64,000 nucleotides of DNA from Elusimicrobia bacterium GWC2_61_19 (lineage in GTDB: Bacteria; Elusimicrobiota; Elusimicrobia; Elusimicrobiales; UBA9959): contig MGUD01000018.1 in assembly GCA_001799795.1 (NCBI GenBank), positions 2,647 through 66,646 of the forward strand, written 5' to 3'. A program made the position numbers and the translations under genes. Shown here one piece after another: positions 1,179-12,144 of the stretch (position 1 is the first letter of the stretch; each line of letters starts with the position of its first letter). The notes under the pieces were generated by a model, which saw only the letters and a list, made by a program, of their open reading frames with translations, made no database searches and was not told the DNA's origin.

Positions 1179-1214
1179 AAGGCGGGCCGGATATTCCGGC
1201 CCGCCTTTCTTTTT
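1179..1214. terminator. Bidirectional intrinsic terminator between convergent genes
   Basis: 12-bp stem aaggcgggccgg/ccggcccgcctt with loop atatt. It is flanked by an A-run upstream and tctttttt downstream. Confidence 0.7.
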
Positions 1215-1228
1215 ACCCGCTTGGCTTT

Positions 1229-1969
1229 TTACGCGGCTTCCTCGGTGGAAACTTCCTTCTTACCCTTAGTGAAGAACGAGTGAGCTATGAAGTATATCAC
1301 CATGGCCGCCAGAATGACCTGGCTGGCGTAGAAATACTTGGCCGCGGAGTAGGTGTACAGGTCGTCGAAGCGCCCGTACAACAGCGAGAACCGGGCCATG
1401 ACGGTATTACCGAAGGCCGCGCCGAAGTAGACCATCAGGAAGTAGATGCCCACATTGGAGACTTTTTTAAGGTGGCCTTTATGCTCCACCGAGAAGAAGA
1501 AGTAGAAGAGCACGCAGATAGTACCGCCCGCCACCAGCAACGACCCGAAAATATTGAACGGGGTCATGGAAGCCAGCATGGAGAACGGCTTTATGGTGCC
1601 GCCTATCTGGCTGATGAAGTCCGTGGAAAGGCCGGCCGGGATGGCCAGGCCGGAGCCGTAGCCCATCATGAACGTGAAGCCGTAGCGGGAGATCCAGGAG
1701 ATCTTGGGGATGAACTGGGTCAGCAGTGAAATACCCAGGATGGAGGGGATTATCACCAGCATCTCGCCGTTGGAGACGGGTTCCCAGATCTTCGGCAGCC
1801 ACACGTTCGTGACCGACACCTGGAACAGCCAGCCCATGCCGGCGCCCAGGTACAGGTGCTCGGCGATCTTAAAGAACGGGTTGTCCTTGTAAAGGAAGCT
1901 GAAGAGGAAGATAGTGAGTCCCGCCGACACCCAACCGCCGATAATAAGCCATGTTTCTGACATAATCAC
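1229..1969 (-). CDS. Polytopic inner-membrane protein, unknown function (membrane module gene 4)
   Basis: The listed ORF starts at GTG 1969; ATG at 1963, preceded by GAGGTG, is the likelier start. Several hydrophobic helices. It begins 18 nt after the upstream gene. No family recognised. Confidence 0.7.
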   Translation of the reverse strand: MIMSETWLIIGGWVSAGLTIFLFSFLYKDNPFFKIAEHLYLGAGMGWLFQVSVTNVWLPKIWEPVSNGEMLVIIPSILGISLLTQFIPKISWISRYGFTFMMGYGSGLAIPAGLSTDFISQIGGTIKPFSMLASMTPFNIFGSLLVAGGTICVLFYFFFSVEHKGHLKKVSNVGIYFLMVYFGAAFGNTVMARFSLLYGRFDDLYTYSAAKYFYASQVILAAMVIYFIAHSFFTKGKKEVSTEEAA

Positions 1970-1987: not shown

Positions 1988-2812
1988 TCAAAAATATTTA
2001 ATGAACAGCAGAATGATGTTGGAAGTCAGGATAAGCACCAGCACCAGCAGGTGCGCCAGGTTAAGCGCGTCGATCCCGGAAGTGCCTTTGCCCGGCTGCT
2101 TGATGAGCGACTCGTACTCCGCCGCGCCCTTCATGCCGCCTATAAGGCCTTTCAACTGATTGGTCTGCAGGTAGGGCCCGTAGCCCGGCTGGCTGATGGC
2201 TGTAACGCCGCCGGCCACCGGCACGCTGTACTTGTCGCCGACGTAAGCCACCCAGTAATCCAGCAGCGCGGTACCGGTAACGCTTACGATAAGGGCCATA
2301 TCCTTATAGTTCTTCACGCCCTTCATGACGGGCATATCTTTGATGGGGGCACCGTTGCGGTCCTTGGCGTAAATACCGTAGAGGTCCGAAGACATCTGCG
2401 TCATGACCGCCAGCACATTGGGCTGGTACGGGAAAATAACATAATCCTGCCCGTCCGTTTTATTGTATTCCTTGGGGACCTTGGCGAAGACCTCTTCTAT
2501 CAGGCCCGTGGAGCCGGCTATATAGGTAACCACGCCCACGCGCAGGTTCCGGCTGAAGGCGTGCCGCACCAGCGCCATGGCCATAGGATGCAGTTCAGGC
2601 CTGGTCGAGGGGTCGTAGTCGAGCGATAAAAGCACGAAAGACCCGACGGGCAGTTTCTCGATATTATCGTAGACCCGGCGGGTGGCGGGGGAGATGGTCT
2701 TATTGGGCAGGCCGATAGGCTTCATTATCGGGACGAACAGCGTGACCGCCAGCAGCAGGAAGATCCAGCGCCTGTCTATCTTGAAGAATTTCTGAAGTTG
2801 TTCCTTGAGCAT
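1988..2812 (-). CDS. Bitopic membrane protein with large soluble middle domain, unknown function (module gene 3)
   Basis: N-terminal TM (WIFLLLAVTLFVPIM) and C-terminal TM (LLVLVLILTSNIILLFI) flank a ~220-aa domain. The start lies 3 nt after the upstream stop. Confidence 0.7.
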   Translation of the reverse strand: MLKEQLQKFFKIDRRWIFLLLAVTLFVPIMKPIGLPNKTISPATRRVYDNIEKLPVGSFVLLSLDYDPSTRPELHPMAMALVRHAFSRNLRVGVVTYIAGSTGLIEEVFAKVPKEYNKTDGQDYVIFPYQPNVLAVMTQMSSDLYGIYAKDRNGAPIKDMPVMKGVKNYKDMALIVSVTGTALLDYWVAYVGDKYSVPVAGGVTAISQPGYGPYLQTNQLKGLIGGMKGAAEYESLIKQPGKGTSGIDALNLAHLLVLVLILTSNIILLFIKYF

Positions 2813-2815
2813 GGC

Positions 2816-3484
2816 TTAATCCTTCCCCATATACTGTTTTTCGATGCCGAAGATTATTTTAAGCGAGGTCACGATAGCGCCGATGGAGATGCCTATCATG
2901 ATACCGCGTTTGCCGGCCACCGCGGGTACCTGCATGATCCATTCTATGACCTGGTCCACCCCGGCGCCGGTCCAGCCCAGCACCGAACTCCAGATTATCT
3001 GGCCCAGCGGAACTTTGCCGAGTATCAGGATGAAAGCCGCCACGAACAACACGAAAGCCTGCAGTGATTTTATCCTGAACGACCTGTAAGCGGTGGAAAC
3101 GATGTAGAAGGCCAGCACCGCGAACATGGTGCCCGAGAGGGCATTGTAGATGAACTTGAACGACCAGCCCAGCGGGGTCAGGCCGGCGTCGGTCATCTGC
3201 TTACCGTGGCTCAGGTAGGCGGGCAGCACCATGGCCAGGAAGCCCACGAACACGAAGACGCTGTAGCCCCAGCCGTCGGCGTGCCTCTTGATCTTATTGT
3301 AGTGCGAGAAGAACAGGCTGATGAGCCCCAGCAGAAAAGCGAAAGCGACCACGATATTTTCCCACTGGCTCAGGGTCTCGATGTAATTAACCGAGACCTT
3401 GTTGGGGACATAATAAGACACCAGTGTAAGAACACCGGTCACCATCACGATGGCTAAAGGTATATGTTTTTTTATCAGTTTCAT
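2816..3484 (-). CDS. Polytopic inner-membrane protein, unknown function (module gene 2)
   Basis: Multi-TM ORF separated by 3 nt from the upstream gene. No family recognised. Confidence 0.7.
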   Translation of the reverse strand: MKLIKKHIPLAIVMVTGVLTLVSYYVPNKVSVNYIETLSQWENIVVAFAFLLGLISLFFSHYNKIKRHADGWGYSVFVFVGFLAMVLPAYLSHGKQMTDAGLTPLGWSFKFIYNALSGTMFAVLAFYIVSTAYRSFRIKSLQAFVLFVAAFILILGKVPLGQIIWSSVLGWTGAGVDQVIEWIMQVPAVAGKRGIMIGISIGAIVTSLKIIFGIEKQYMGKD

Positions 3485-4781: not shown

Positions 4782-6542
4782 TCAGTTCTCCAGCAAATAG
4801 CTGGACACCCCGGCCCGCGAAGGCCCTGAGCTCAGGAATCTCTTTATCGCCGCGACGTGTTTCTGCATACCGGCCTTGTTCATATTTTCAAAAACGGCCT
4901 CTCTTGCCGCGCGGCTGATGTTTTTGGGCCAGAGCAGGTAAAGGGTGGCGGGGGCGCTGCCTTCTCCCTCATAGCGAAAAACTTTCATCAGTCTGTAAGG
5001 CTCAAGGAGAGAATCCAGCTGTTTGGCCGTAACATGCCATTGCGAGTACAAGTCCCTGTCCGCAAGGACATCTCCCGTCATGTACACGGGGACGGCCTGT
5101 GCATAGTAACGCGCGAGGCTGGCGCGCAGCTGCGCGACCGGGTCTTTTTTGTCCGCGTAGGCGTTCAGGATAGCCAGCTGGATGGAGATCCTTTTACGGT
5201 TGGAGAAATACGGGAGATAGACCTTCAACGCCCCGCCGGAGATCAGGACGGGGCTGTCCGGGTAGGTAAAGTGCGCGACCGCTTCGCAAAACCCGATGGC
5301 CGGCTTGACCTGCTTACCCAGATAATTAGGCACGATAAGCCGGAAGAAATTATTGCCGGCCAGAAGACCGACGAAGAGAAACCCGGCCGCGGGTAAAAAG
5401 CGGGCCTTCAGCGCCCGGACGCGCGCCTGGAACAGCGCCGCCAGCAGCCCGCAGCAGAGCGCGACATTGGTGGACCAGTAAATAGTGTTGGCCGGCTGCC
5501 AGACGGAGTACAGCAGCAGGAACAACGCGAAAGGCAGGCCGAAGGCGGCCGCGAGCGGCGCGCTTTCGGGTGTAAGGAGGGGGCGCTTTTTATCGCCGGA
5601 AGACGCGCTGAAGGCGGCCATGGCCGACAGGAGGAGCGCCGCGGCGGCGAGTACGGCCGCCGCTGATCCGCCGGTAAAGTAGAAAAAAGACAGGAGCAGG
5701 TTCTTTACCGGCAACAGTATGTGGGCGGGGATATTCAGGTCGAACTGCCCCAGGGGATTGCTCTCGGGTGAAACTCCGTTCACAAGCCCCGAACCCCACT
5801 GCCACCAGCGCGCCAAGCCGCCCCTGACAAAAAAACCGTGTATACCGGCGTAAGGCAGGAAGAAAACCAGGAATATGCCGGACAAAATACCGGCCTGCCT
5901 GAGGACCTCCTTGCGGTGATATAACAGCGCGGCAGCCGCGGCGGCCCAGAGGATATTATTGGCGATATGGAAACCGGAGGCCAGGCCGGCGAAAACACAC
6001 AGCCAGGTGAAAGCGGCCAGGGAAAATTCCCGGAAATACCTGTAGAGCGCCGCGCAGAAAAGAACGGTGAACAGCGTCCCGGCCAGGTACGGCTCCGCCC
6101 CGGTGGAGCGGCTCCAATACACATTGCTGACGCCGGCCAGCAGCGTCCAGAACAGCGCCGGCCGCCTGGAAAGGAGCCCGTTAAGAATGGCGAAGAAGAA
6201 GGCCAGGCCAAGCGCGCCGGCGGCCGCGTTGAACCACTGGATGGCCTCATAGGTCAGGCCGCCGAAGCCCAGGGCCCGGATTAGCACGTAGAAAAAGCGC
6301 GTGGCGGGGTACCAGAGGAAATGGTTCCATTCGAATATGACGGAGAGTTCGTTGAGGCCGAGAGGCGCCCTGATGATGCCGGCGTACAGGACCGAATCAT
6401 AAAAATACGAGTGGTCGAAAGTTACGGAATAAAGGAGCAGGAAAGCTATAAAAACGAAGACCGGGTCGGAGACCGCCTGAGGAACGGAACCGGAAATTAT
6501 CTCTTTAAACCGGCCACCGCCGGGGTTGGACTCCATAAGCAC
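4782..6542 (-). CDS. GT-C-like (ArnT/PMT/DUF2723-like) polytopic membrane glycosyltransferase, putative
   Basis: More than 10 hydrophobic helices plus a ~170-aa soluble C-terminal domain. Loop motif DHSYFYDSVLYAG after TM1. The listed start is GTG; ATG at 6536 is an alternative. Assigned by architecture only. Confidence 0.5.
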   Translation of the reverse strand: MLMESNPGGGRFKEIISGSVPQAVSDPVFVFIAFLLLYSVTFDHSYFYDSVLYAGIIRAPLGLNELSVIFEWNHFLWYPATRFFYVLIRALGFGGLTYEAIQWFNAAAGALGLAFFFAILNGLLSRRPALFWTLLAGVSNVYWSRSTGAEPYLAGTLFTVLFCAALYRYFREFSLAAFTWLCVFAGLASGFHIANNILWAAAAAALLYHRKEVLRQAGILSGIFLVFFLPYAGIHGFFVRGGLARWWQWGSGLVNGVSPESNPLGQFDLNIPAHILLPVKNLLLSFFYFTGGSAAAVLAAAALLLSAMAAFSASSGDKKRPLLTPESAPLAAAFGLPFALFLLLYSVWQPANTIYWSTNVALCCGLLAALFQARVRALKARFLPAAGFLFVGLLAGNNFFRLIVPNYLGKQVKPAIGFCEAVAHFTYPDSPVLISGGALKVYLPYFSNRKRISIQLAILNAYADKKDPVAQLRASLARYYAQAVPVYMTGDVLADRDLYSQWHVTAKQLDSLLEPYRLMKVFRYEGEGSAPATLYLLWPKNISRAAREAVFENMNKAGMQKHVAAIKRFLSSGPSRAGVSSYLLEN

Positions 6543-6565
6543 CCTTTCACTTAGCGCCCTAAGTC

Positions 6566-8725
6566 TTATTTCGCACCTATGTACCGGACGATGACTTCCC
6601 GCATGATGTTGAAAGCAGGGGAGACCCCGGGAGGGAGTTTAGACACAAGTTCATAAACGGCCACGCGGTTGACGGGACGGCCGTTGTCCATCTCTTCGTG
6701 GGCGTACACTTCCACTACGTGCTTATCCCAGAAGGCATCGTAGATCCCGCGGGCCCGGGCGTCCCAGTAGAACATATTGTAGGCCTTGCCCAGCCTTATG
6801 CCTTCGGCTGGATTCAGCAGCAGATGCGTTATTCCCTCGGCTTTCAGGCGCGAGTAAAGTTCCTCGCCCGTTTTGGCGGCGGCGGCGTACTCCACTATCG
6901 GGGTTTTGTCGAAAACGGAACTTACCATGAAATCTTTCCTGAAGTACGAACCGCGGGCGTCCCCTATAATCAGCGTTTTGGCGCCGGGCGGCAGTTTATA
7001 ATTGATGAACTGAATGGCCCCATAATGGCTGTAAGGGTAGGTGGGTTCGGTGACGGCCAGGTAAGCATCCTTGTCCACAAGGCCGAACACCGGCCGCCAG
7101 CGGCCCTGTGAATACAATATGAGGCCGGCCCAGTACACCCCGAAAGCGCAGGAGAACAGCGTCAGGATAGCGAGCGTTTTGCGCAGGAGCCTGTGCTGGC
7201 GGGCGTCGAGCGCCGCGGCTATCAGCAGGGCCGCCGCCGGGTAGACGGGCATCAGGAAGCGCACCATGGTGGAGGCGAAGGACCACAGCAGCCAGCCGCA
7301 GAGGAAATAGAGCCAGAACGGCGGCGTGCCCGCCGGCTGCAACAGGAACAGCAGCGGCAGCATGACCAGGAACAGAGGCGTGAAATAATTAGAATTGGGC
7401 AGGGCGCCCATCGTGACGTTCCACGGGTGCAGCAACCAGGCCTTCGGTTCCAGGGCGCTCATCTGCCGCGTTTCCACCATAAAGCCGCGCAGTTTATCCG
7501 GGTCCGCCCCGGACAGCCCGAAGACGGACGTCAGGAAGGGAAAGAAGGGATTGCCGCGGTACAGCCAATTCTTGGCCAGCCAGGGCAGCACCGGCAGGGC
7601 GGCCACGCCCGCGAACACCAGGGCAGCGCGCAGGGCGTTAGCGCGGTCGGCCCGCGCGCGCCAGAGCAGGACCAGGCCGGTGCCCACGGCCGGGAACAGG
7701 CCGGTGGTCTTTACCGCCATGCCGCAGCCGGAAAGAAAAGCCGCCAGCAGCAAAAAACGGTATTCTCCGGGCTCGTGGCGCAGGGCGGCGGCGAGCGCGC
7801 AGACCGAGAACAGGGTAAGCAGGTCTTCCGTGCCGGAGGACCAGGAGGCCATCATCGCCTGCGCTACGGTGTAGAAGATCAGCCCGGCCCAGAGGCCGGC
7901 GCGCAGCGTGAAATGCCGGCGGCCGATGCCGACTACGGCTACCAGGCTCAGGACCCCGGCCGCGTAGTTCAGCAGTTTGGGCACCATCTCGTCCTTAAGC
8001 AGCAGGCCGGCGGAATAGAGCATGCCGTGCAGCAGGAAGAGGTTGGAATACAGGTTATACGGCATGTCCGAGATACCATGCTTTATCGTATAGAAACTGG
8101 GCACGGCCAGGTGATAGACCAGAGAATCGTAAAAGATCTCGGGGCTGAGCGCGCCGATGAGGTTGAGCAGCAGCGCCGCGGCCAGCAGGGCCATGGCGAG
8201 CAGGTCGGGGAACTCCGGCCTGAAAGCGGGGGCGGGGGCTTCCGGGGGGATGGGATAATGTTTTCTGGAAAGCGCTCCCAGCGCCAGCGAAACCCCCAGG
8301 ACCAGGTATACCGGCCCCCTGTAAAGGAAACCGCAGGCGGCCAGAACAAGTATCAGGTGCCCTACGGCACCGAACCCCAGCGCTACCGAGAAAGCCGACT
8401 CTTCGCAGGCCGTCATGCGCCCGGGGTTAAGCGCGGCGGCCAGCAGGAACCTGCCCAGGCCGGCGCAGGCCAGGACAAAGAACAGGCCGGACAGCAGCGC
8501 GGAAAAATGTCCGGGCAGGGCCTTGAACAGGGCGGCGCTGAAATACTGCCCCGGCGAAAGGACGACAAAAAGCGAATTGAGATCGGGGGGATAATGCGAG
8601 AGGTAGGTCTTAAGGACCCAGCCGCCCCAGAGCAGGAAAGCGCCCCAGGCCAGCCAGGCCGGGAACCGGGGCGGCTCTGGCGCGGCAGGCGGAACGGCGG
8701 CGGCGTTTTTACGTTTTTTTGCCAT
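6566..8725 (-). CDS. GT-C-like polytopic membrane glycosyltransferase, putative (paralog of 4782..6542)
   Basis: 719 aa with many TM helices and a soluble C-terminal domain. It shares the motif SPEIFYDSLVYHL with its neighbour. Assigned by architecture only. Confidence 0.5.
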   Translation of the reverse strand: MAKKRKNAAAVPPAAPEPPRFPAWLAWGAFLLWGGWVLKTYLSHYPPDLNSLFVVLSPGQYFSAALFKALPGHFSALLSGLFFVLACAGLGRFLLAAALNPGRMTACEESAFSVALGFGAVGHLILVLAACGFLYRGPVYLVLGVSLALGALSRKHYPIPPEAPAPAFRPEFPDLLAMALLAAALLLNLIGALSPEIFYDSLVYHLAVPSFYTIKHGISDMPYNLYSNLFLLHGMLYSAGLLLKDEMVPKLLNYAAGVLSLVAVVGIGRRHFTLRAGLWAGLIFYTVAQAMMASWSSGTEDLLTLFSVCALAAALRHEPGEYRFLLLAAFLSGCGMAVKTTGLFPAVGTGLVLLWRARADRANALRAALVFAGVAALPVLPWLAKNWLYRGNPFFPFLTSVFGLSGADPDKLRGFMVETRQMSALEPKAWLLHPWNVTMGALPNSNYFTPLFLVMLPLLFLLQPAGTPPFWLYFLCGWLLWSFASTMVRFLMPVYPAAALLIAAALDARQHRLLRKTLAILTLFSCAFGVYWAGLILYSQGRWRPVFGLVDKDAYLAVTEPTYPYSHYGAIQFINYKLPPGAKTLIIGDARGSYFRKDFMVSSVFDKTPIVEYAAAAKTGEELYSRLKAEGITHLLLNPAEGIRLGKAYNMFYWDARARGIYDAFWDKHVVEVYAHEEMDNGRPVNRVAVYELVSKLPPGVSPAFNIMREVIVRYIGAK

Positions 8726-8768
8726 TAAACAAAAGCGGCCGCGCGGCGGGTTACCGGCGCAGGCCGCT
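8726..8768 (-). terminator. Intrinsic-terminator-like GC hairpin plus U-tract abutting the ATG of the 719-aa gene
   Basis: On the minus strand, stem agcggcc..ggccgct (8768..8734, with inner GC pairs) is followed by TTTTGTTTA and then ATG at 8725. Confidence 0.45.
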
Positions 8769-8779
8769 CGTAGGTCAGG

Positions 8780-9904
8780 TTACTTCTCCAGCACTTCTAT
8801 ATTGGCGCGGGGGACCACTATCACCTCGCCGCCGTCGAGCGTAACTTCCAGCACGCGGGCGTGGGATTCGCTGCCTATCACGGTCAGTTCCGGCGGCAGG
8901 GACTTCACGGTGCCTATCACGCCGAAGTGGGGCTCGCGGATTATGCGGATAGGGTCGCCGGGTTCTATCCAGCCGCGGCCCTGGTCCTTCTTGCACTCGG
9001 TCACGTTCTTGGGGAAGCCGGGCACGATGATCTCCGGGCGCATGACGCCGGCGCGGATCTGCGTAGCGCCGGAAACGGAGGCGTTCTCCCCGTTGCGCGA
9101 CGAGATCAGTTTAAAAGTATACTCGGCCATCGGGATCGCGCCGAAGCCTTCGGTCACGATCACGGTAACGCCCAGCTGCTCGTTGCCGGTCACCGCCACG
9201 CCGATGTCGTAGCCCAGGAGTTCGCGCAGGTCGCGGTCGTGGATGCCGCCCACCACTATGGCGTTAACGCCCATCTCGACGGCGCGCTTGATGGTGGCGA
9301 GGCTCGCGTGCCTGCCGCCTATGACGATCTTGCCCTTGTGTATTTCCTTGATGGCCTCCGGCTGAAGGTCCTCGTCGGGGCTGGCCACGGCCACGGCTAT
9401 TTCGCCGTTGGTCTCGCCGCCCACGCCGAAGATGCCCTGGATGAAGGTGCCTTCGGCCTCTATGGCGACGCCGAAATTGGGGGTAACCTCCACCACTTTG
9501 CCTTTTACGTAGGCCTTAATGGGCAGCACTTTCGGGGGCTCGCGCAGCAGCACCTGGCCGGTTATAAAGGAGACGCTTTCCACGGTGCCGCTTACCGGCG
9601 ACTCCACGGAGGTCTTGAACCACTTCAGGAAGGGTTTGTTCTCGGCGAGGATCTCGCCCTGCTTCACGGCCTCGCCCTCTTTCTTGAGCATATAGCCCTG
9701 TATTTCTTCCGGGCCCACGGAAAGGCGGTTCGCGACGTTCACGGAGAAGACCTTGCCGGGCAGTTCGGTCTGGGCCACGATGTCCAGCGAATCTACCTGC
9801 TGCCCCAGGGCGGCCAGCACCTTGCCGGGGATGGGCAGCAGCCTCTTCTTCACCAGCCGTGTGCAGGGCATTACTTTAAGTCCGGGTGTATACGCGTGTG
9901 CCAT
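8780..9904 (-). CDS. Barrel-sandwich-hybrid (lipoyl/RnfC-N-like) domain protein, unknown function
   Basis: AAGGAGA SD. The pattern EGEAVKQGEILAEN...VESPVSGTVESV is present, but there is no MKM biotin motif. Gly-rich segment KGKIVIGGRHASLATIKRAVEMGVNAIVVGG. Confidence 0.6.
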   Translation of the reverse strand: MAHAYTPGLKVMPCTRLVKKRLLPIPGKVLAALGQQVDSLDIVAQTELPGKVFSVNVANRLSVGPEEIQGYMLKKEGEAVKQGEILAENKPFLKWFKTSVESPVSGTVESVSFITGQVLLREPPKVLPIKAYVKGKVVEVTPNFGVAIEAEGTFIQGIFGVGGETNGEIAVAVASPDEDLQPEAIKEIHKGKIVIGGRHASLATIKRAVEMGVNAIVVGGIHDRDLRELLGYDIGVAVTGNEQLGVTVIVTEGFGAIPMAEYTFKLISSRNGENASVSGATQIRAGVMRPEIIVPGFPKNVTECKKDQGRGWIEPGDPIRIIREPHFGVIGTVKSLPPELTVIGSESHARVLEVTLDGGEVIVVPRANIEVLEK

Positions 9905-9926
9905 AAATTATCTCCTTGTGGTCGTA

Positions 9927-11720
9927 CTAGAGAGGATACATCGACATCGCTTTGTACCACTTGTTCAGGTCGTCGCGGCGCTTGGACGGGTCCTTCGCCA
10001 GGTTGAAGGGGCGGCCGCGCCCGTCCAGCACCAGGCCCACCACGCCGCCCTCGATATCGGCTTCCACGCGGTTGCCGGAACCGGCGCCCATGTCGAAGCC
10101 CTTCACCGGCTTGGCCACGAGTTTGGCTTTGGGAGCGGCGAACGGCACATGGATGATGTCGCCGAAGCGCAGTTCTCCGGCCTGCCGGCTGCCGTCGGAG
10201 CCGGTAACTTCCCACTCCATTATAAGCTGGCCTTCCTTGGCCAGGCCCTTGGGGGCCAGGCAGGTGCCCATCCGCACAAGGCAGTCGTGGTAGAACACGT
10301 CCAGCGCGGCCTTCTCGCTGATCTGCGCCAGCACGCCCAGGTGCGGCATCATGAAGATGGAGTCCACGGCCATGCGGGTGACGCCTTCGGGCTGGTAGGC
10401 GTCTATCATCATCAGCATGGACTGGGTGCGGCGGGGGGAATGCGCCAGAATGCCGCCCGAACCTATCACGTAGTCGAGCCGCATCACGTTGATGAGGCTG
10501 GCCCCGGAAGAGGTCTGGTCGAAAGCGTCCGAGATGGAGCGCTCCTGCTGCACGCCCTTGAGCCCGACGGCCAGCGCCTTGTGCTGGTCGAAAGCCAGGC
10601 GCAGCGCCTCGCGCGAGACGGCATGCTCGATCTGCAGGTCCTCCACCGTCTGGGGGATGGTGGTGGGGCGGATCATTTTGTTCTTCAGGCGGTTTCTGAG
10701 GTCCTGCTCTTCGATGTCGAAAGGCAGCCAGCGCAGGATGTTCGCCAGGCCCGCCTCCGCCATGACATTGGAGATGGAGTAGCTCATACCCAGGTTGGCG
10801 CTGACGGTGCGGTTGAAGACTTCGGAGAACACGGAGAACACGTCGGTGGTGGCGCCGCCGATGTCCACGGCCAGGACGTTGAATTTATTGGCCTTGGCGA
10901 ATTTTTCCGTCATGGTGCCTACCGCGGCCGGCGTGGGCATGATGGGCGCGCCCACCATCTTCATCAGGCGCGGGTAGCCGGGGGCCTGCTGCATCACGTG
11001 CTCGAGGAAAATGTCGTGGATCTTGTGGCGGGCCGGCATCAGGTTCTCGCGCTCCAGGCTGGGGCGCAGGTTCTCGGTTATGATCAGGGCGGTGGTGTCG
11101 CCGAGGATCGCCTTGATCTGGTCGTGCGCCTTGTTGTTGCCGGCGTAGATCACCGGCAGCTTGTAGGAGGCGCCGAGGCGCGGCTTGGGGTCGGCCGCCT
11201 TCAGGAACTGGGCCAGTTCCACCACGTGCGTGATGGTGCCGCCGTCGGTGCCGCCGGAAAGCAGCATCATGTCCGGGCGCAGCTGGCGGATGCGCTCGAT
11301 CTTCTCGTGGTCCGCGCGGCCGTCGTTAGAGGCCAGCACGTCCATCACGATGGCGCCCGCGCCGAGCGCGCAGCGCTGGGCGGATTCGCCGGTCATGGCC
11401 TTCACCGCGCCGGCCACCATCATCTGCAGGCCGCCGCCGGCCGAGGAGGTGGAGACGTAAATATCGGCGCCCACATTGCCGTTGTTCGGGGTTATTATCC
11501 GTTCGCCGTCGAGGATCTTGCGGCCGGAGAGCTCCTCCACCTCGGTGATGGAGTTGAGCACGCCCTTGGTGACGTCTTCAAAAGGGGCTTCCACAGTGGT
11601 GGGGGCTTCGCCGCGGAAAGTCTGGCGGTAGGTGTCGCCTTTCTTTTCGATAAGGATGGCTTTCGTGGTGGTACTGCCGCAGTCGGTGGCTATTATGACT
11701 TCAAGGTCTTTGTTGGACAT
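9927..11720 (-). CDS. GlmL/MutL-family ASKHA-fold ATPase (glutamate-mutase-L-like), orphan
   Basis: AAGGAGAG SD. Phosphate-binding motifs IATDCGSTTTKAIL and VLAVDIGGATTDVF. Family assignment is from memory of GlmL/MutL-like proteins. Confidence 0.65.
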   Translation of the reverse strand: MSNKDLEVIIATDCGSTTTKAILIEKKGDTYRQTFRGEAPTTVEAPFEDVTKGVLNSITEVEELSGRKILDGERIITPNNGNVGADIYVSTSSAGGGLQMMVAGAVKAMTGESAQRCALGAGAIVMDVLASNDGRADHEKIERIRQLRPDMMLLSGGTDGGTITHVVELAQFLKAADPKPRLGASYKLPVIYAGNNKAHDQIKAILGDTTALIITENLRPSLERENLMPARHKIHDIFLEHVMQQAPGYPRLMKMVGAPIMPTPAAVGTMTEKFAKANKFNVLAVDIGGATTDVFSVFSEVFNRTVSANLGMSYSISNVMAEAGLANILRWLPFDIEEQDLRNRLKNKMIRPTTIPQTVEDLQIEHAVSREALRLAFDQHKALAVGLKGVQQERSISDAFDQTSSGASLINVMRLDYVIGSGGILAHSPRRTQSMLMMIDAYQPEGVTRMAVDSIFMMPHLGVLAQISEKAALDVFYHDCLVRMGTCLAPKGLAKEGQLIMEWEVTGSDGSRQAGELRFGDIIHVPFAAPKAKLVAKPVKGFDMGAGSGNRVEADIEGGVVGLVLDGRGRPFNLAKDPSKRRDDLNKWYKAMSMYPL

Positions 11721-11741
11721 GTGGCTCTCCTTGGAATACCG

Positions 11742-12056
11742 TCAGATCTTCTTTTCAGCGTCCGCTCCCAGCCGCTCCGTCAGATAGGCGACGGCCTTGG
11801 GATTCTCCAGCAGCTTGGCATACCTGCTGACTTCTTCTTTCTGAAAAACCATGCTGAGCATCGGGCCCAGGAAAACCACGCCCTGCGCGCCCAGGTTATG
11901 CAGGGGCCTGGTGCTCTCCAGCGCCAGGGCGGCCATGTCGCCCATCTTTCTGGCCCGGACCTTGTCGGCGAGGGCGTCCAGAAGTTTTTTTTCCTCTTCC
12001 GTCGCCTCCGGCGGTTCGGGGAGTTTAAAAGCGTTGTCCCAGATTCCCATGCGCAT
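11742..12056 (-). CDS. Small acidic/helical hypothetical protein, first gene of the ASKHA trio
   Basis: 104-aa ORF, 21 nt upstream of the ASKHA gene. The in-frame ATG at 12050 may be the true (leaderless) start. No family recognised. Confidence 0.5.
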   Translation of the reverse strand: MRMGIWDNAFKLPEPPEATEEEKKLLDALADKVRARKMGDMAALALESTRPLHNLGAQGVVFLGPMLSMVFQKEEVSRYAKLLENPKAVAYLTERLGADAEKKI

Positions 12057-12058
12057 TT

Positions 12059-12122
12059 ATTTTACAATATTTAATACGGCGCAACGCGGATTCGGGCCGA
12101 CCGCCGCATTATATTGTAAAAT
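12059..12122. promoter_or_regulatory. Divergent promoter region with 12-bp inverted repeat, each arm carrying TGTAAAAT
   Basis: attttacaatat (12059..12070) and atattgtaaaat (12111..12122) are reverse complements. Each arm supplies a TAAAAT -10 box facing outward. Confidence 0.45.
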
Positions 12123-12144
12123 TATACCGTAACAGGACAAAGAT

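Follow-up and report, generated by a model that had tools for sequence, protein, structure and literature searches.

The stretch of DNA analysed here (the window, 64,000 nucleotides of contig MGUD01000018.1 of Elusimicrobia bacterium GWC2_61_19) carries three consecutive genes, A, B and C, encoding a small helical protein, an ATPase of the ASKHA superfamily and a multidomain partner protein. Our analysis revealed that this trio is the soluble half of a larger, conserved operon of seven genes (A-B-C-F-G-H-I), in which F to I encode a four-protein inner-membrane set. An original prediction, made from the letters of the window, had described the trio as open reading frames (ORFs) of 104, 597 and 374 amino acids (aa) coupled by Shine-Dalgarno sequences, and had proposed that this unit does something other than mutase reactivation. 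The predicted coordinates were exact, with all three ORFs on the minus strand, and the starts of B and C are each preceded by an AAGGAG Shine-Dalgarno box (gaps of 21 and 22 nt, respectively). The three genes are coupled as described, but they make up only half of the unit, as they are syntenic across phyla with a four-gene membrane module defined by the DUF6754 protein F.

All seven genes of the window lie on one strand and in that order, between positions 12056 and 1229, with two inserted genes (D and E, described below). A tblastn search with the window proteins against 80 genome loci recovered the order A-B-C-F-G-H-I in Elusimicrobia, Nitrospira and Binatia, and homologues of A stood immediately upstream of the ATPase gene in 73 of these 80 loci. 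The complete unit was also present in one Zixibacteria genome, whereas variants with B and C joined into one protein were found in a marine contig (A, B-C fusion, F, G, H, I) and in Cloacimonetes (TetR, B-C fusion, an F of 1150 aa, G, H, I). Median intergenic gaps along the A-B-C-F-G-H-I loci were −4, 37, 4, 1, 16 and 7 nt. No flanking gene families common across phyla were found, the flanks being lineage-specific. Among these flanks, Opp transporter genes border the unit in some Elusimicrobia, and in Nitrospira the unit is regularly preceded by a gene for a Tim44-like-domain protein and followed by one for a 466-aa Memo-like protein (loci L050 to L087, e.g., L077:16738-18135 and L065:6549-7991). 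Some metagenome contigs showed partial duplications, either of the soluble genes in tandem, as B-C-A-B-C (L103, L129, L139, L148), or of the membrane genes, with F-G-H-I twice in succession behind a single A-B-C (L142, L143, L151, L155).

The system was seen in about ten named lineages, with uneven representation. Orthologues of B were present in all 21 sampled genomes of the Zixibacteria phylum, in 10 of 81 sampled Nitrospirota genomes and in 7 of 121 sampled Elusimicrobiota, the latter including all 6 genomes of the window's family and none of the 37 from a neighbouring family with small genomes. In addition, source names place B in Neomarinimicrobiota, Planctomycetota, Ozemobacteraceae, Aegiribacteria, Fermentibacteria and Cloacimonetes. 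The conservation of the unit was evaluated by comparing the genome of the window with 800 kb of one Nitrospira genome, which yielded 69 reciprocal best hits with a median identity of 35.8% and a 95th percentile of 52.8%. B (66.8% over 596 aa) and C (56.6%) were the two most conserved full-length proteins among them, with B more conserved between Elusimicrobia and Nitrospira than FtsH (52%); other proteins in the comparison, named like FtsH from their motifs, were a PilT-like ATPase (53%), thioredoxin reductase (52%), biotin carboxylase (50%) and transketolase (46%). The membrane proteins F, I, G and H were 41–46% identical in the same comparison. Because the ranking B > C > F–I > A repeats within Elusimicrobia, it reflects differing constraint and not one recent transfer, while an ancient transfer between phyla may still have taken place.

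The association between B and C goes beyond the vicinity of their genes. A follow-up search detected fusion proteins, with B followed by C, in more than 90 clusters (950–1060 aa), and two of the best 150 homologues of C were about 1000 aa long. The N-terminal parts of these fusions are 53–56% identical to B. In the tree, the main clade requires at least four gains or losses of the fused state, and all members of another, distant clade are fused. This recurrence of the fusion in a fixed order is strong evidence that B and C form a physical complex, hereafter B·C. In agreement with this, a model of one fusion, built from 92 fusion sequences (pLDDT 86 and pTM 0.87 over 995 residues) suggests that the B and C parts have a defined mutual arrangement. 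C is the obligate partner of B. The distant fused clade often carries an N-terminal helix-turn-helix (HTH) domain. These HTH_3-B-C proteins, of about 950–1050 aa and 37–42% identical to B, are encoded by genes that stand alone, away from DUF6754 genes (L170:7444-10506; G121:C70:59599-61092). As roughly half of the Zixibacteria genomes sampled contain both such a fusion and the main seven-gene unit, this clade is a paralogue of the main system.

Regarding the family of B, the original assignment as a GlmL/MutL-like protein, based on the motifs DCGSTTTKA and DIGGATTDV, was confirmed by a match to PF13941 (MutL) with E = 5.2e-127 and 424.8 bits (cut-off 27) along residues 9–479. The phosphate-1 motif reads ATDCGSTTTKA (residues 11–21) and the phosphate-2 motif VDIGGATTDV (residues 283–292), and the residues of both are invariant across 92 related fused proteins; the ASKHA adenosine motif is likewise invariant. 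However, B scored below the cut-offs of the specific subfamilies, with 231.3 bits for NCBIfam GlmL (NF040745, cut-off 475), 210.7 for Or-4 (NF040744, cut-off 600) and 164.4 for TIGR01319 glmL_fam (cut-off 204.05). Clustering with hydantoinase or EutA-type enzymes, named in the original prediction as a result that would refute it, was not found by sequence: the 425 bits for PF13941 compare with 22.5 bits for PF01968 (Hydantoinase_A, cut-off 22.9), restricted to residues 264–309. No EutA/DdrA family appeared in the Pfam scan of B at E ≤ 0.01, the 50 best PDB structures for the ATPase part include none of these reactivases, and a sequence search of solved structures with B returned no match. The best structural matches of the ATPase part were N-methylhydantoinase, acetophenone carboxylase and acetone carboxylase (E = 9e-10 to 1e-8), followed at lower ranks by Hsp70s, PilM/FtsA and sugar kinases, all of them with low TM-scores.

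B was further compared with six mutase-linked references of 461–467 aa, five GlmL encoded in glmS-glmL-glmE(-mal) clusters (Peptoclostridium, E. coli, Prevotella, Rhizobium and Fusobacterium) and the Or-4 of the oraS-oraE cluster of Acetoanaerobium, to which it is 26–30% identical. The alignment showed that B and GlmL have in common the core motifs GST.T, SSA.GGL, L..GG, AGN, PTP, D.GGATTD and RTV, and that B is distinguished by three insertions and by an additional beta domain of ~115 aa at its C-terminus (residues 484–597), predicted as beta strands and then a helix. In a quick maximum-likelihood search, run with no bootstrap, the 6 mutase-linked sequences were split from 69 C-linked ones by a long branch of ~2.1 changes per site (SH-aLRT 100), with end branches of 1.2–2.0 in the mutase-linked group versus 0.1–0.4 in most of the B clade, about five times shorter. 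Within the MutL/GlmL family, this ASKHA ATPase occupies a branch of its own that evolves very slowly; by sequence B belongs to the GlmL family, yet it would not itself be a GlmL. Public records label it as "methylaspartate mutase" or "glutamate mutase L", a label that is misleading.

The relationship of the trio to B12 enzymes was analysed at the levels of contig, genome and lineage. No match to B12-binding, GlmE or MCM profiles was found along the whole contig of the window, which extends the prediction that the window lacks mutase and B12-binding genes. The genome of the window, an Elusimicrobiales metagenome-assembled genome of 1.36 Mb and 66% completeness, gave no match to GlmE (PF06368), MCM or KamD/OraE-type enzymes either. 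It contains six B12-binding domains, all of them in 450–560-aa proteins with a CxxxCxxC motif, corresponding to class B radical-SAM proteins; three of their genes are clustered within 8 kb of one contig (C25, ~31.7–39.8 kb), and the others are located at 106.6 kb of the same contig, at ~35.3 kb of C15 and at ~35.1 kb of C17. As this assembly is incomplete, five near-complete genomes of the same family (96–100% complete) were also searched, all of them carrying a B orthologue at 78–97% identity. None of the five encodes GlmE or MCM. A KamD/KamE-like lysine aminomutase was present in three of them, unlinked to the trio, and the other two (96% and 98% complete) lack GlmE, MCM and KamD. In a genome of the same genus, the aminomutase is encoded on a contig other than that of the trio, in a cluster formed by a MutS-domain-V ATPase, KamD, KamE and an aminotransferase, where the MutS-like ATPase could be the aminomutase's own accessory protein. 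This cluster (L168, genes 7229–10897) lies at a contig end, with KamD matching Lys-AminoMut_A, KamE matching OAM_dimer plus B12-binding, and the aminotransferase belonging to class III. Beyond this phylum, KamD and GlmE were absent from both Nitrospira carriers searched, and GlmE from all four carriers of other phyla (two Nitrospira, one Binatia and one Zixibacteria). Finally, a mutase was never adjacent to the trio in the ~240 loci examined. No B12 isomerase always accompanies the trio, and the system is independent of B12 mutases, which supports the original proposal of a role other than mutase reactivation.

The partner protein C was modelled by AlphaFold with high confidence (pLDDT 91.8, pTM 0.82) as an N-terminal barrel-sandwich hybrid (BSH), a small beta-barrel, an alpha/beta domain and a C-terminal KOW/SH3-like barrel. 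Its profile matches are weak (NQRA_N and RnfC_N at 1.6e-3, Biotin_lipoyl at 0.023, all below cut-offs), and BSH matches of the NQRA_N/RnfC_N type recur among the Pfam annotations precomputed for the B-C fusions. The view of C as a BSH protein devoid of an attachment lysine motif holds well: no MKM or DKA motif was found, and the position of K90, at the hairpin tip, varies among 83 relatives, of which 58 have Lys, 14 have Arg and the remainder have other residues. As this lysine is not conserved, C is not a biotin or lipoyl carrier. Invariant in the family are the motifs AYTPGL, QGIFGVGGE, TG.E, TEGFG, GATQIRAG..RPE and PRAN.E. In the model, QGIFGVGGE, TG.E, TEGFG and GATQIRAG..RPE occupy a beta hairpin and the ends of strands in the alpha/beta domain, positions typical of a ligand or partner site, which these motifs may form. 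The N-terminal AYTPGL was modelled with low confidence despite its invariance, as expected for a docking peptide, for which it is a candidate.

A structure search of the PDB with C revealed no global relative, and its sequence gave only chance-level matches among solved structures. At the domain level, matches were found to the KOW domains of Spt5, NusG and ribosomal proteins, to PA-like domains (TM ~0.35) and to BCCP. The family is large, with 2488 representatives at 50% identity for E ≤ 1e-3 and 496 for E ≤ 1e-30, including homologues named from Bdellovibrionales. Members of ~450 aa (P0168, P0182, P0209, P0228 and others) carry a duplicated N-terminal BSH domain; fusion of A to C was considered as the cause of this length and discarded on that basis. 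Some C-family genes have no ATPase gene within several kb (L094:8505-9653, L097, L107:9992-11143, L117:10001-11125), and their neighbours are unrelated, for instance a pair of response regulator and histidine kinase. With respect to the third soluble protein, A, searches against Pfam, NCBIfam and PADLOC were all without match, and the conserved core of its family is PA..FLES.KPL.F.GSQ...F..P.

The topologies of the membrane proteins were predicted from family-averaged hydropathy and positive-inside counts. F would consist of an N-terminal anchor, a periplasmic FN3 domain, a transmembrane (TM) helix, a cytoplasmic DUF6754 core of ~200 aa and a final TM helix. The core contains 59 invariant columns, and the F profile matches titin FN3 domains at 2e-11, with no other part of F matching solved structures. 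The length of F varies in its extracytoplasmic part, from 414 aa in the window to 912 aa in Zixibacteria (L180:6094-8832) and 1150 aa in Cloacimonetes (L172:12477-15929). Sequence searches of the PDB gave no relative for the DUF6754 core or for G, H and I, and the latter three also lack relatives in Pfam, where a scan of all 19 relatives of H at E ≤ 1 gave nothing consistent. G and I were also considered as a pseudo-symmetric pair of paralogues, an idea rejected by hhalign (probability 0.3%). The inserted genes D and E, with weak matches to the LIC_10190 family (7e-9) and PMT_2 (3e-3), are lineage-specific and lie outside the conserved core, D being present in only some Elusimicrobia loci, E in one, and both being absent from the Nitrospira and Binatia loci. 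A YfhO-type GT-C gene adjoins the Cloacimonetes unit (L172:19363-21174).

Two other identities were considered for the whole system. One was a complex similar to NqrA/Rnf, suggested by the BSH match and by similar subunit sizes, which was rejected because NqrA and RnfC are absent from the structural matches of C and because the membrane proteins are unlike solved Nqr or Rnf subunits. The other was an anti-phage defence system, set aside for want of a match to PADLOC defence models, which detected none of A, B, C, F, H or I and gave a single chance-level hit for G (0.0097).

The best overall explanation for these results is that B·C constitutes the soluble, ATP-using half of a seven-gene inner-membrane system, a reading for which we consider the chances evenly balanced. 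According to it, B and C would associate into a single cytoplasmic complex, to which A would be a small accessory, and this complex would dock on the conserved cytoplasmic DUF6754 core of F, as gene order and topology suggest. ATP binding and hydrolysis in B would then drive conformational changes through the membrane subunits, and the movement would reach the domains that F and H expose in the periplasm (FN3 and alpha/beta, respectively), so that an envelope component would be handled or moved at or beyond the inner membrane. This docking of an ATP-driven B·C on F, with conformational work passed on to periplasmic domains, is put forward as a possible mechanism, somewhat doubtful at present. 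Slightly more tentative is the broader idea that the seven genes encode a previously unrecognised envelope machine, in which an actin/Hsp70-fold ATPase locked to C would power a four-subunit complex acting in the periplasm. The in-operon GT-C-like genes of Elusimicrobia are a hint of a glycan or glycolipid as substrate.

Several results weigh against this explanation. Searches of solved structures revealed, for F, G, H and I, no relative pointing to a particular activity, and in structure the ATPase part is closest to enzymes of the hydantoinase-A type, not to motors. In 22 of 126 scorable loci C had no B next to it; these loci belong to several clades intermixed with clades in which B is adjacent. 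The existence of B-C fusions and lone C genes away from F–I means that the function of B·C may be independent of the membrane module. The sole C-F fusion protein found (P0338), considered as a Rosetta stone, looks like a frameshift artefact, the rest of DUF6754 following as a separate ORF of 119 aa. In addition, the GT-C genes D and E that hint at the substrate are lineage-specific.

Competing explanations were also considered. B·C could be a two-component, ATP-dependent soluble enzyme in which B, in the manner of the hydantoinase-A modules found in oxoprolinase and acetone carboxylase, phosphorylates a small molecule or activates it in another way, C provides a second catalytic or ligand site, and F–I import or export this metabolite as its dedicated carrier or serve as a membrane anchor. 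The top structural matches of the ATPase part and the sub-threshold Hydantoinase_A match fit this idea, as do the enzyme-like invariant Gly, Thr, Glu and Arg motifs at the strand ends of the alpha/beta domain of C and the fusions and stand-alone C genes with no F–I nearby. However, TM-scores to hydantoinases are low (0.16–0.30), there is no HyuB-like catalytic partner, C has no structural relative among enzymes, and no metabolic genes are common to the neighbourhoods across phyla. The sizeable periplasmic domains of F and H would also be unusual for a simple solute carrier, and a Zixibacteria genome with a stand-alone fusion also has the full unit, so the lone copies may be paralogues. Altogether, we regard such an enzyme as unlikely. 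A polymerising or scaffolding role for B, similar to that of FtsA, PilM or MreB, by which it would organise F–I rather than drive them, appears more improbable: B is extremely conserved, as proteins with many contact surfaces typically are, its structural matches include PilM and FtsA (TMt ~0.4), and its association with bitopic and polytopic membrane proteins recalls that of PilM with PilN/O, but by sequence B falls in the GlmL/hydantoinase branch, not known to polymerise, and its catalytic motifs are invariant.

Two further possibilities receive very little credit from us. B·C might be a ligand-sensing regulatory module, comparable to ROK-type proteins with HTH and ASKHA domains, that controls the membrane complex or transcription, as could be imagined from the N-terminal HTH_3 of the paralogous fusions and from the TetR gene that precedes the Cloacimonetes operon. 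This is very unlikely, as B and C of the window contain no DNA-binding domain and the HTH fusions are a separate clade that co-resides with the main system. The least probable of all is that B acts in trans as a reactivating chaperone for a B12 enzyme encoded elsewhere, with a lysine/ornithine-type aminomutase as the candidate. Its basis is the presence of B in PF13941, a family in which the mutase-linked members have been assigned the role of reactivating chaperones by analogy with diol dehydratase reactivase (PMC4682846), together with the KamD/KamE-like genes of three same-family genomes (one of them of the same genus), none of which showed a second PF13941 gene, and the partial completeness of the window's genome. 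The carriers devoid of such mutases, both the two near-complete relatives and the two Nitrospira, largely refute it, and it is also opposed by the absence of mutases next to the trio, by the fixed partnership of B with C and four membrane proteins, by the fully supported branch and low identity that set B apart from GlmL/Or-4, and by the confinement of the genome's B12-binding domains to radical-SAM proteins.

The features of the locus are listed in Table 1. The putative −10 box TGTAAAAT ends at 12059, 2 nt short of the annotated ATG of A, and for this reason the true start of the gene is probably the in-frame ATG at 12050 and not the annotated one. The position of this box implies that the transcript of A may be leaderless or nearly so; a promoter-like site is also listed near it, at 12140..12113 (minus). 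The hairpin located after C has a minimum free energy of −26.1 kcal/mol (z = −2.5 with respect to shuffled sequences), and similar hairpins with a U-tract follow C in 6 Elusimicrobia loci and 3 metagenome loci. Because this hairpin and UUUUGUUUA separate C from the next gene, the trio may be expressed above the membrane genes. The hairpin after gene I is likely the end of the transcription unit. In this DNA of 62% GC, antisense "shadow" ORFs on the plus strand overlap the real genes at 9753-12074 (773 aa), 8861-10006 (381 aa) and 7193-8728 (511 aa).

Table 1. Genes and putative regulatory elements of the seven-gene unit, in window coordinates.
Feature	Position	Strand	Basis or remark
A, small helical protein, 104 aa (probably 102 aa from the ATG at 12050)	12056..11742	minus	ORF; first gene of the operon
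B, ASKHA ATPase of the MutL/GlmL family (PF13941), 597 aa	11720..9927	minus	ORF and Pfam match
C, partner protein, 374 aa, four domains	9904..8780	minus	ORF and AlphaFold model
D (719 aa) and E (586 aa), GT-C-like polytopic membrane proteins	4782..8725	minus	Between C and F; weak profile matches
F, DUF6754 membrane protein, 414 aa	3488..4732	minus	PF20539 at 1.2e-111
G, 222-aa membrane protein, six TM helices, N-in/C-in (predicted)	2816..3484	minus	
H, 274 aa, ~216-aa periplasmic alpha/beta domain between two TM helices, N-in (predicted)	1988..2812	minus	
I, 246-aa membrane protein, 5–6 TM helices (predicted)	1229..1969	minus	Last gene of the unit
Putative extended −10 box TGTAAAAT	12059..12066	minus	Sequence read; directly precedes gene A
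GC-rich hairpin followed by UUUUGUUUA, terminator- or attenuator-like	8733..8769	minus	Separates C from its downstream neighbour
Strong hairpin, 13 pairs (10 GC), with T-tract	1179..1207	minus	After gene I

If the proposed envelope system is confirmed, a widespread and strongly constrained bacterial machine would have been overlooked because its ATPase is automatically annotated as a mutase protein, and a systematic mis-annotation that falsely implies B12-dependent glutamate fermentation in the carriers would be corrected. These carriers include the nitrite-oxidising Nitrospira and other environmentally important groups. The system would rely on an energy coupling distinct from that of ABC, AAA+ and P-loop secretion ATPases and of ion-driven motors, and could reveal a new manner in which ATP powers work at the envelope. 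For biochemistry and cryo-EM, the repeated B-C fusions are natural single-chain constructs. Our literature search found no paper on DUF6754, on this clade of B or on the seven-gene system, and a 2025 paper on the actin FcmB concerns an unrelated family derived from ParM.

In conclusion, although the ATPase superfamily itself is known, we found no characterised system that combines an ASKHA ATPase and a BSH/KOW partner with a membrane complex of four proteins. The closest relatives by sequence are GlmL and Or-4, which have in common with B the PF13941 domain and the core ASKHA motifs, but the reference genes stand beside glmS/glmE or oraS/oraE, where B never does, and their shorter products lack the insertions, the C-terminal beta domain and the partners C and F–I of B. 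The best structural likeness is to the hydantoinase-A modules of N-methylhydantoinase, oxoprolinase and the beta subunits of acetone and acetophenone carboxylases, with their weak PF01968 match and low TM-scores; B, however, has no HyuB-type partner, its partners being a BSH/KOW protein and membrane proteins. The reactivases DdrA/DdrB and EutA, the ASKHA ATPases from which the chaperone idea for GlmL derives (PMC4682846), resemble B in fold, in similar length and in working with a small partner subunit, but differ from it in sequence family and top-ranking structural matches, and no B12 isomerase is linked to the trio. As for C, the N-terminal BSH of NqrA/RnfC is the closest sequence family to its first domain, below cut-offs, whereas the rest of the protein is unlike them, neither is among its top 50 structural matches, and no redox cofactor motifs were seen. 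In genetic organization, the unit recalls PilM-PilN/O, FtsA-FtsN and GspL, where an ASKHA protein is likewise encoded with membrane proteins bearing periplasmic domains, although these belong to another branch of the superfamily, have partners unrelated in sequence and act mainly as scaffolds. Finally, FtsEX, MacB and LolCDE depend on an ABC ATPase with no homology to the actin/Hsp70 fold of B, and their likeness to the system, by analogy and not by membership, would reside in the proposed working logic, that of a cytoplasmic ATPase that moves periplasmic domains.

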